From Methanocaldococcus indicus (GTDB lineage Archaea; AGJL01; Methanococci; Methanococcales; Methanocaldococcaceae): a stretch of DNA of 64,000 nt. Made by a program: the position numbers and the translations under genes. The stretch is taken from the NCBI RefSeq assembly GCF_049554935.1, contig NZ_CP186926.1, positions 928,001-992,000 on the forward strand, read 5' to 3'. Positions 7,189 through 39,710 of this stretch are shown in pieces (positions within the stretch are counted from its first letter, which is position 1; every line of letters starts with the position of its first letter). Below the pieces are notes generated by a model. That model was not told where the DNA came from. It saw only the letters and a program-made list of their open reading frames with translations, and did no database searches.

Positions 7189-7703
7189 TTAGTTATCCTC
7201 CAAGAGGCTCGATTTTAACAATATTTAAAAGGTATAAATGGTGAATGAAATGGATTACGTTTCCATCCTCCAAGAGGCACGATTTTAACTATTAACCATT
7301 TCCTATTTGAAAATATCAATATGTGTAAATGGTTTCCATCCTCCAAGAGGCACGATTTTAACCATTTTTGTTTTATTTGTTGATTTAAATTTATTAATTT
7401 GTTTCCATCCTCCAAGAGGCACGATTTTAACGAGTGTTGAAAAAATTGAACTCATCAAAAATAACATTGGTTTCCATCCTCCAAGAGGCACGATTTTAAC
7501 GTGATTACACTCCCCAAATTACTGTTGATGATGTCCAAGTTTCCATCCTCCAAGAGGCACGATTTTAACAATGAAAAAGTTAAATGGAGAATTAATTACA
7601 ACAAAGTTTCCATCCTCCAAGAGGCACGATTTTAACCCAACATAAAGACTTTACAGTAAATAAGACAGCAGAGTTTCCATCCTCCAAGAGGCACGATTTT
7701 AAC
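7189..7703 (-). CRISPR. CRISPR array, 8 repeats / 7 spacers; repeat GTTAAAATCGTGCCTCTTGGAGGATGGAAAC (31 nt)
   Basis: Repeats start at 7189 (degenerate, leader-distal), 7259, 7332, 7401, 7470, 7539, 7606, 7673. Spacers are 39, 42, 38, 38, 38, 36, 36 nt. CCTC/GAGG hairpin and GAAAC 3' end on the minus strand; leader on the right. Confidence 0.98.
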
Positions 7704-8095
7704 AGGAATATTTTAGACATAATAACATTAACGACCTTCTCATATATAAGCTTTTCTACATAAAAATTTTCGAAGGGTAGGTTTCCCTATTCATTTATAA
7801 TTCATTTATATACCTTCGAACTTTTATAAAAATCTTTCTATTCTCAATTATTCAATTAAAAATTTTTTATATCTAAAAACTAAACCAATTTATTAGGGAT
7901 TTTCAAATATTAAAAGAAACAACTTAAAACTCCAAAAAATCCCAATAAATTATATAATCAAAATATATAAAATATTCAAAATATAGACTCCCTCTGAATT
8001 TTCCTAAAAATCCTTTAAATTAAAAATAACCAACTAAAACTCAATAAAATTAAAAAATAAAGATTTTTAGCGTGATAATTGTTATCTGAATATTT
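7704..8095 (-). promoter_or_regulatory. CRISPR leader (long-repeat element) with BRE/TATA
   Basis: AT-rich, ~390 bp, alignable by eye with 39329-39710. Minus-strand GAAAAG-CTTATATAT at 7741-7756. 11-bp tandem duplication attcatttata at 7789-7810. Confidence 0.9.

Positions 8096-37776: not shown

Positions 37777-37796
<20 letters not shown>
37281..37796 (+). CDS. cas4: Cas4 nuclease
   Basis: N-terminal Cys plus CKNCAYYELC 4Fe-4S ligands; KIDF, HEIKK, QALYY RecB motifs. Confidence 0.95.
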
Positions 37797-39105
<1,309 letters not shown>

Positions 39106-39163
39106 AAAATCATCTTTTTATCATAGTTATCGATAAATTAAAAGAAAATCTTAAAAAAATTGA

Positions 39164-39328
39164 ATTTCCATACCGGGACGGTCTTATTTTAACAGGAGGC
39201 ACATTTTCAATCTGGCAGATAATAACGAGCATCATAAGAACAATGACGGTCTTATTTTAACAAAACATTTATTTATGTGCATACTTCAATATTATAGATC
39301 ATAAGAACAATGACGGTCTTATTTTAAC
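39164..39328 (-). CRISPR. aberrant mini-array: one canonical repeat plus two identical chimeric repeats
   Basis: 39164-39193 = GTTAAAATAAGACCGTCCCGGTATGGAAAT (minus strand). 39231-39261 and 39298-39328 = GTTAAAATAAGACCGTCATTGTTCTTATGAT. Intervening segments are 37 and 36 nt; leader follows. Confidence 0.88.
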
Positions 39329-39710
39329 AGGAGGCACATTTTAGACATAATAATATAGCAACATAATATAGCAACGTTCTCATATATAAGCTTTTCGGGA
39401 CAAAAATTTTCGGAGGGTAGGTTTCCCTATTCATTTATATACCTTCGAACTTTTATAAAAATCTTTCTATTTAGTATTATTCCACTAAAAACCGTCTATT
39501 CTTAAAAACTAAACTAATTTATCAGGGATTAACCTAAAACTCATAAAAATCTCAGTAAATTATATAATCAAAATATATAAAATATTCAAAATATAAACCC
39601 CCTATGAATTTCTCTAAAAATCCTTTAAATTGAAAATAATCTTCTAAGACACTATAAAATCAAAAAATAAAAATTTTTAGCGTGATAATTATCATCTGAA
39701 TATATAAACT
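39329..39710 (-). promoter_or_regulatory. second CRISPR leader (paralog of 7704-8095) with BRE/TATA
   Basis: Shares blocks ttctcatatataagcttttc, gggtaggtttccctattcatttata and tttttagcgtgataatt with leader 1; 13-bp tandem duplication at 39350-39375. Confidence 0.9.

Follow-up and report, generated by a model that had tools for sequence, protein, structure and literature searches.

A private 13-bp leader duplication beside an off-register spacer integration in a type I-B CRISPR array of Methanocaldococcus indicus

The leader of the CRISPR array that adjoins cas2 in Methanocaldococcus indicus carries a perfect 13-bp tandem duplication which, on alignment with its paralogues, is a private spacing mutation in the leader of a type I-B array. 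The short array behind this leader can be rebuilt as the product of two successive spacer integrations, the first of which entered the leader itself. We lean slightly towards attributing this first, off-register event to an error-prone integrase combined with a local choice of cutting site, and we weigh that explanation below against one in which the leader measures the position of integration.

The window (the whole 64-kb stretch of DNA analysed, to which all coordinates without a prefix refer; those with the prefix C1 or C2 refer to the two contigs of the genome) holds two CRISPR arrays on the minus strand, each with a leader of ~370 nt on its right side. Array 1 (7196-7703) consists of eight regular repeats, while the second is a mini-array (39164-39343) beside cas2 with one full repeat only. 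The cas genes upstream are cas6, a 517-aa gene in the cas8 position, cas7, cas5, cas3, cas4 and cas1, with cas2 on the opposite strand (Table 1). Pfam matches were obtained for Cas6, Cas7 (DevR/Csa2), Cas5, Cas3, Cas4, Cas1 and Cas2, and the 517-aa protein had no Pfam or NCBIfam match. By its gene content the locus is type I-B CRISPR-Cas, the putative cas8b being assigned by position. The cas1 start that is conserved in relatives is the ATG at 37877. The leader-array-cas2 order is shared with four of the five relatives checked (G011, G016, G010 and G006), whose cas2-adjacent arrays hold 46, 21, 13 and 5 repeat cores, respectively, which argues for a collapse of the array here to its single remaining full repeat. 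In G010 and G006 cas2 adjoins the array but cas1 lies ~6 kb off, so that something appears to have been inserted between them. A related strain, represented by runs X2 and X3 of another study, has the same cas2 and terminal repeat; its cas2-repeat spacer region has diverged (7-8 changes, 19 gap letters), and it has many different spacers with the same repeat.

Table 1. Coordinates of features at the cas2-adjacent CRISPR locus, in window positions
Feature	Position	Strand	Basis
Sixth off-register event: 33-nt perfect direct repeat (37777-37809, 37849-37881) around 39-nt insert, 51% G+C	37777..37881	.	
cas1, type I-B Cas1b, sole cas1 of the genome	37856..38845	+	TIGR03641, 449 bits vs cut-off 304
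cas2, downstream of the array, same strand, convergent with cas1	38842..39105	-	Pfam PF09827, TIGR01573
Full 30-nt repeat, same sequence as in five large arrays at other sites of the genome	39164..39193	-	Sequence comparison
Older copy of 31-bp target duplication, integration 1 (17 nt repeat + 14 nt leader)	39177..39207	-	
Spacer S1, 37 nt, insert of integration 1	39208..39244	-	Two-step integration model
Older copy of integration-2 target duplication (14 nt S1 + 17-nt truncated repeat)	39231..39262	-	
Spacer S2, 35 nt, insert of integration 2	39263..39297	-	
Leader-proximal copy of integration-2 duplication; ends at canonical junction TGCCTCCT/GTTAAAAT	39298..39329	-	
Leader-proximal copy of integration-1 31-bp duplication	39312..39342	-	
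Leader 2, read toward lower coordinates; member of 12-leader family	39329..39700	-	Leader alignment
Perfect 13-bp tandem duplication in leader 2	39350..39375	-	Direct read, Tandem Repeats Finder, alignment of 12 leaders
Proximal promoter-like block: CCCGAAAAG (BRE-like) then CTTATATA, minus strand; includes TTCTCATATATAAG	39377..39399	-	Sequence
Conserved distal leader element: TCGGAGGG, TAGGTTTCCCTATTCA, TTTATATA, CCTTCGAA; inverted-repeat arms around TATA box	39410..39449	-	Cross-genome comparison

The genome has 12 leaders, which form one family and are 80-84% identical. Those of the closest genomes are merely ~70% identical, so that no orthologous allele of leader 2 (the leader of the mini-array) is available for comparison. 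In the alignment of the 12 paralogues, leader 2 is distinguished by two private indels, the 13-nt insertion, which the 11 others lack, and a deletion of ~19 nt further upstream (alignment gap at ~39525). The bases absent there, TTTCAAATATTAAAAGAAAC or similar, are present in all 11 other leaders. Two further leaders have private changes: leader 1 has an 11-nt tandem duplication, ATTCATTTATA twice (7789-7810), inside the conserved distal element, with a regular array of eight repeats, and the leader at C1:400901 has an insertion of 69 nt. The second contig (22 kb, plasmid-like) has its own six-repeat array at C2:10700-11510 with a leader of the same family. Alongside the one leader family and a single cas1-cas2, the 12 arrays contain three repeat variants (30 or 31 nt), which have identical first eight bases, a similar end and different middles; the array at C1:299407-300317 changes variant part-way. 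Perfect 30-nt tandem repeats in several copies at C1:635689-635870 and C2:1863-2060 are iteron-like and unrelated to CRISPR.

The 13-bp unit, ATAATATAGCAAC, forms a perfect head-to-tail pair at 39350-39362 and 39363-39375, where the original prediction had placed it. Both a direct read and Tandem Repeats Finder (39350-39375: period 13, 2.0 copies, 100% matches) bear this out, and the window contains no exact copies of the unit other than these two. Counted upstream from the first repeat, the pair occupies nt 22-47, with the repeat-adjacent leader segment on one side and the proximal BRE/TATA block on the other. Both copies are perfect, border homology amounts to an ATA run before the first unit and nothing else, and, given its absence from the 11 other leaders and the outlying spacing described below, the duplication is in excess of chance occurrence. 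From the run that is probably the source, the contig pieces listed cover 38850-39327 and the region from 39444 onward, and among those listed none spans 39350-39375, as would be the case if the duplication or the mini-array were an artefact of assembling a repeat-rich region. We regard such an artefact as so improbable that it can almost be disregarded: the run contigs agree with 38850-39327 without differences and at the depth of the flanks (26-28.5), supporting the mini-array; the duplication (26 bp) has units shorter than the 31-letter words of those contigs, and so is not the usual collapse or expansion error; and the genome is in 2 contigs with a completeness of 99.25%.

The distances from which the original prediction argued are correct. 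The start of TTCTCATATATAAG is the 34th base from the repeat in leader 1 (repeat end 7703, start 7737; 33 bases between) and the 49th in leader 2 (repeat end 39328, start 39377), or the 36th once the duplication is subtracted, and it is the 35th base from the off-register boundary at 39342/39343. Across the 12 leaders, the TATA block lies 33 nt from the repeat in two, 35 nt in five and 36 nt in three, giving 33-36 nt for the ten undisturbed leaders, with leader 2 at 48 nt and the leader bearing the 69-nt insertion at 102 nt. Since spacings of 33 and 36 nt both accompany in-register arrays, any ruler acting on this distance would have to be inexact.

A more distal motif, TCGRAGGG, is spaced still more regularly. 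A pattern search for this motif and the repeat in 40 genomes of the order, with distances of 53-83 nt allowed, gave 71 matches, 70 of them leader-like; the remaining one (in G018) was unlike a leader and was left out of the count. In these 70, which come from 10 genomes and two families, the distance was 66 nt in nine, 67 nt in 16, 68 nt in 43 and 69 nt in one. Leader 2, at 81 nt, is the sole exception to the range of 66-69 nt found in the other 69. No second spacing variant was found in the 40 genomes: at distances of 83-113 there were 6 matches and at 23-53 there were 2, none leader-like, with 3 and 4, respectively, in the reversed-pattern controls. The premise that leader-repeat spacing does not vary freely therefore holds for the TATA block within this genome and for the distal motif across genomes. 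From the off-register cut the distance to TCGRAGGG is 67 nt, and that from the block to the cut is 34 nt. Of the suggestion that an anchor sits at or upstream of the promoter block, the upstream half alone would fit: the TATA-like block actually named lies ~20 nt from the repeat in another genus (G028), so that any anchor would have to lie in the distal element or in something phased from that element.

In the distal element, TCGRAGGG is separated by ~16 variable bases and a TATA box from a second, complementary arm. Over its 42 nt the element is 69-93% identical between genomes, compared with 54-75% for the segment from the element to the repeat. Its arms around the TATA box (39409-39449) are TTCGAAGG ... 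CCTTCGAA; as an inverted repeat, the element could be the binding site of a dimer or form a hairpin. In the leaders of G012 and most of those of G016 (loci L018-L057) the arms read TTCGGAGG ... CCTCCGAA, and this change on both arms may be a single evolutionary event. The proximal block, in which CTTATATA matches TWTATATA at 7/8 positions, is predicted to act as a promoter. In M. jannaschii, transcription is described as starting 23 +/- 2 nt after a TWTATATA box (PMC2699501). By this rule, transcription from the proximal block would begin ~18 nt short of the repeat in a normal leader and ~31 nt short of it in leader 2, and that from the distal TATA box, read toward the array, at the TCGRAGGG element. 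The conserved 66-69 nt could thus alternatively be a feature of the transcript.

The mini-array itself is best read as a record of integration. Next to the full repeat (39164-39193) stand the first 14 bases of the leader, and a model of two integrations into a single repeat rebuilds 39100-39420 base for base. According to this model, the cas2-adjacent array would have collapsed to a single repeat before both events. Integration 1 nicked the DNA 14 bp upstream of the repeat, within the leader, and after repeat base 17, thereby duplicating 31 bp around a 37-bp spacer; the boundary at 39342/39343 corresponds to its off-register leader-side cut, TTATGTCT/AAAATGTG on the minus strand (a slash between sequences denotes the cut). 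Integration 2 nicked the normal leader-repeat junction, with the far nick ~31 bp off, inside S1, adding a 35-bp spacer and duplicating the last 14 nt of S1. The run shared by the two copies of this second duplication is 32 nt (14 of S1, 17 of the repeat and one leader base), or 31 given a cut at the canonical junction. The mini-array thus has the footprint of integration, with duplications of 31 and 32 nt and unique inserts of 37 and 35 nt.

Read in this way, the reconstruction demonstrates the integration history and a nick spacing of ~31 bp regardless of the sequence at the far end. Since the repeat was down to 17 bases at integration 2, the far cut was measured from the junction side rather than read from the distal repeat. 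Integration 2 is therefore an in vivo demonstration of a far nick ~31 bp from the junction although the distal 13 repeat bases were missing, and it directly supports a far cut set by distance. Neither S1 nor S2 had a match elsewhere in their own genome.

Mis-registration is not confined to this locus. When repeat pairs were scanned across the 12 arrays of the genome (94 repeat cores), five target duplications proved to be off register, and an identical script found none in 49 arrays (689 repeat cores) of seven related genomes, where it flagged whole-unit duplications and two short partial-repeat runs, nothing else. At C1:400903, 31 bp lying wholly within another leader are duplicated around a 38-nt insert; the leader-side cut, 32 bp into this leader, is separated by 1 nt from its TATA block, as is the far cut from the junction. 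At C1:401153, the duplicated 31 bp comprise 15 repeat bases and 16 of an older spacer, around a 37-nt insert, and the leader-side cut is 15 bp inside the repeat. At C1:441345, 8 of the 31 bp come from the repeat and 23 from the spacer next to it, the insert measures 34 nt, and the leader-side cut is 23 bp upstream of an internal repeat. A sixth event is found exactly where cas4 stops and cas1 starts. None of the five relatives compared has these 72 bp, their sequence there being single-copy, and the insertion resembles a spacer that has entered the cas operon. Copy 1 of the duplication keeps the cas4 stop and copy 2 the cas1 start, and so both genes are intact. Neither this insert nor S1 matched anything in the plasmid collection. 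The shared runs of the six events are 31, 32, 31, 31, 31 and 33 nt and the inserts 34-39 nt; neighbouring canonical repeats share 30-34 nt by chance extension, and the gaps between exact canonical repeat copies in the genome are 32-48 nt.

One of these inserts has an identifiable source. That of C1:401153 (C1:401184-401220) matches 37/37 nt at C1:1171348-1171384 and 35/37 nt on the plasmid at C2:9761-9797, with ACCA on the 5' side, and by these matches it is a true spacer. Since the match ends exactly at the borders of the duplication, the target duplication is fixed at 31 bp. The chromosomal protospacer site is within a stretch of ~900 bp that is 79% identical to C2. A self-match outside arrays was seen for 0 of 81 canonical spacers and for one of the six mis-registered inserts, and this one case suggests that mis-registered self-matching spacers may survive because they are unprocessed. 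Overall, mis-registration amounts to ~5 in roughly 90 spacers, and the six events indicate that this one strain is far more error-prone than its relatives.

Might these structures have arisen without an integrase, by replication slippage or recombination among repeats and leader copies, the 13-bp duplication being a product of the same local instability? Small tandem duplications do occur in 2 of the 12 leaders, and whole repeat-spacer units are duplicated in several arrays. We nevertheless consider such an origin very improbable, since both events at the mini-array and the four others show a duplication of ~31 nt around a unique insert of spacer length, one off-register insert has a protospacer, and slippage would not import new unique sequence of that length. 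The whole-unit tandem duplications are located in two arrays here (C1:441768 and C1:1004150) and in 8 arrays of relatives (L002, L010, L017, L046-L049).

What, then, placed the first nick 14 bp into the leader? The true junction is CCT/GTT, the cut of integration 1 is TCT/AAA and that of C1:401153 is CCT/CTT on the transcribed strand. A pyrimidine-C-T (Y-C-T), which occupies 3.5% of genome positions, thus precedes the leader-side boundary in two of the four array events that are off register; the boundaries at C1:400903 and C1:441345 do not follow it. The junction reads CCT/G in 11 of the 12 leaders and is changed in the leader at C1:400901. A pyrimidine at leader position -3 before the nick is found at the junction (CCT/G) and at the slip (TCT/A). 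Within the 48 repeat-adjacent bases of the leader, Y-C-T occurs only 0, 3 and 14 nt from the junction, so that a miss on the leader side leaves position 14 as nearly the sole option. A local sequence preference can explain the position of the slip without a ruler. Another local explanation was rejected. Mimicry of the repeat, GTCTAAAAT resembling GTTAAAAT, would have led to a nick before GTCT, 18 nt from the junction and not 14. A shared mid-repeat nick (after base 17 in integration 1 and base 15 at C1:401153) is noted as no more than a remark, because the repeats differ in sequence there.

By the explanation that we favour, the error-prone integrase of this strain would have missed the junction and nicked after a pyrimidine-C-T, as at the true junction. 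The duplication would not have measured the site and at most would have loosened the guidance given by the leader at this locus; this weaker causal role carries about half of the weight that we assign to the explanation as a whole. It draws on the leader-side cut offsets, which differ among the six events, four of them outside this locus and without a leader duplication. Moreover, by analogy with P. furiosus, an insertion at -22 leaves the essential proximal determinants in place, and so should lower fidelity rather than shift the site. Three considerations count against it. The leader with the slip is also the sole spacing outlier, and the slip brings the distance back to the conserved value, which is unlikely by chance: at a mis-registration of ~5% per spacer, the rough chance that one of two events would be off by exactly this much is 1-3%, with no correction for post-hoc selection. 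Y-C-T does not precede the boundary in two of the four array events that are off register. Finally, the lone error-proneness of the strain is not explained.

The alternative is that a leader-anchored ruler, either an upstream element or a protein architecture on the leader, sets the leader-side nick; candidate anchors are phased histone tetramers, on the model of P. furiosus, and the TCGRAGGG/TATA element that is conserved here. The 13-bp insertion would then have split the distance signal from the junction sequence, integration 1 following the distance and the next one the junction motif. We hold this to be a possibility of perhaps one in three. It would account for a distance kept at 66-69 nt in 69 of 70 leaders despite the 54-75% identity of the intervening sequence, and for the single leader at 81 nt having its off-register cut at 67; the block-to-cut distance of 34 nt likewise compares with 33-36 in normal leaders. 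Mis-registration is otherwise rare, at the rate given above, the genome encodes 3 histone-fold genes, and a related I-B integrase is reported to be guided by histones, whose proximal site extends into the repeat (PMC13748974).

Against such a ruler, integration 2 used the canonical junction although the duplication was presumably present, and the four other slips, which lack a leader duplication, must have arisen in another way. Taken literally, the 31-bp duplication gives an offset of 14 instead of 13, and leaders spaced at 33-36 nt all have in-register arrays. The 11-bp duplication in leader 1 (7789-7810) accompanies a normal eight-repeat array, which would confine the anchor to the leader segment ~35-85 nt from the repeat. 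The determinants essential in P. furiosus are reported to lie at -1 to -19, with upstream elements changing efficiency ~2-fold only (PMC13748974). Furthermore, the slip is at the very position that local sequence would pick, the coincidence was noticed post hoc, and the order of duplication and slip cannot be read from the sequence. Nor did other strains yield that order, the run contigs breaking at every repeat; the sole contig joint, from 39207 to 39363, is as expected from a normal leader elsewhere that lacks the duplication, and two exact-pattern scans of metagenome contigs, for the slip junction and for the normal leader, gave no match. The original prediction that the duplication pulled integration into the leader thus keeps its geometrical support, the off-register cut restoring the distance, but is weakened by the canonical site of integration 2 and by the four slips elsewhere.

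A true measuring device in the leaders of Methanococcales I-B systems, able to override the junction sequence and plausibly built from phased histone tetramers, is accordingly a view that we put forward only tentatively. If true, it would be the first genetic evidence in archaea that leader spacing sets the position of integration and not only its efficiency. The ruler is a live and easily tested hypothesis, undemonstrated, and all components of the locus are of known kinds. Indeed, the genome is a ready-made spacing test, having in each cell twelve near-identical leaders, one with an additional 13 bp and one with an additional 11 bp further upstream, together with a sequence record of the sites at which spacers were inserted. 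The natural case is a single one: 13 extra bp, with one nick at +14 and one at 0.

In type I-E and I-F systems, changes of leader spacing reduce integration and are not known to shift its site. The IHF-folded leaders of these systems (bioRxiv 10.1101/2023.05.26.542337) are like those here in having conserved upstream motifs at set distances, which there help to deliver the integrase to the first repeat, with a different host factor; in the present leaders, conserved motifs stand at a fixed distance in 69 of the 70 leader-like matches. The original prediction left the archaeal positioning factor open, which is outdated: histones are reported in this role in Pyrococcus furiosus (PMC13748974), where their tetramers bind three leader sites of ~60 bp, the proximal one overlapping the repeat by 7-10 bp. 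There, histone-mediated integration depends on positions -4 to -19 and is insensitive to the sequence at -20 to -30 (PMC13748974; PMC6698737), and the authors leave open that the proximal sequence serves histone placement. PMC13748974 also describes motifs M3, M1, M7, M2, M5 (BRE/TATA) and M6 (repeat-adjacent) as shared by most Methanococcales leaders. The way in which archaeal integrases locate the first repeat is under current study with histones in P. furiosus; from the main paper of PMC13748974 the words insertion, helical, distance and register are absent, so that changed spacing, on which the natural variant described here bears, is not addressed there.

The I-B system of P. furiosus (PMC13748974) resembles the present one in its Cas1b-type integrase with Cas4 and Cas2, in its long conserved leader with BRE/TATA and repeat-adjacent motifs, in a leader that ends in CCT before GTT (a pyrimidine at -3) and in the presence of histone genes; it differs in that here histones are known as genes, and their binding to the leader would be a prediction. 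Its integrase requires the pyrimidine at -3 and prefers CCCT/GTTA (PMC6698737; PMC13748974), whereas the junction here is TCCT/GTTA. As described for P. furiosus Cas1-Cas2 (PMC6698737), paired nicks fall 30-31 bp apart, also at non-CRISPR sites, with off-targets that are repeat-like; the last four bases of the repeat are dispensable, which fits integration 2. Those events took place in vitro on plasmids; the ones here have become part of a genome, where five are in arrays and the sixth is in the cas operon. In the Haloarcula hispanica I-B (PMC4872114) and E. coli I-E (PMC5039180) systems, the leader-side cut is likewise made at the junction and the far cut is placed by distance, not by the bases at the cut, with aberrant duplications of 29-33 bp. 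The far cut of H. hispanica is measured from a motif at repeat positions 18-22 (PMC4872114). These positions were absent at integration 2, and the cut ~31 bp from the junction was thus measured from the junction or from the first 17 bases.

In E. coli, 'neo-CRISPR' formation by off-site integration reportedly leaves repeat-length duplications of non-repeat DNA. Misplaced integration in the leader-anchoring mutants of type II-A systems (PMC6895254, PMC4330368) leaves such duplications too, as do the events described here. Unlike either case, however, the six events here are natural, belong to a single archaeal genome and include one between cas4 and cas1.
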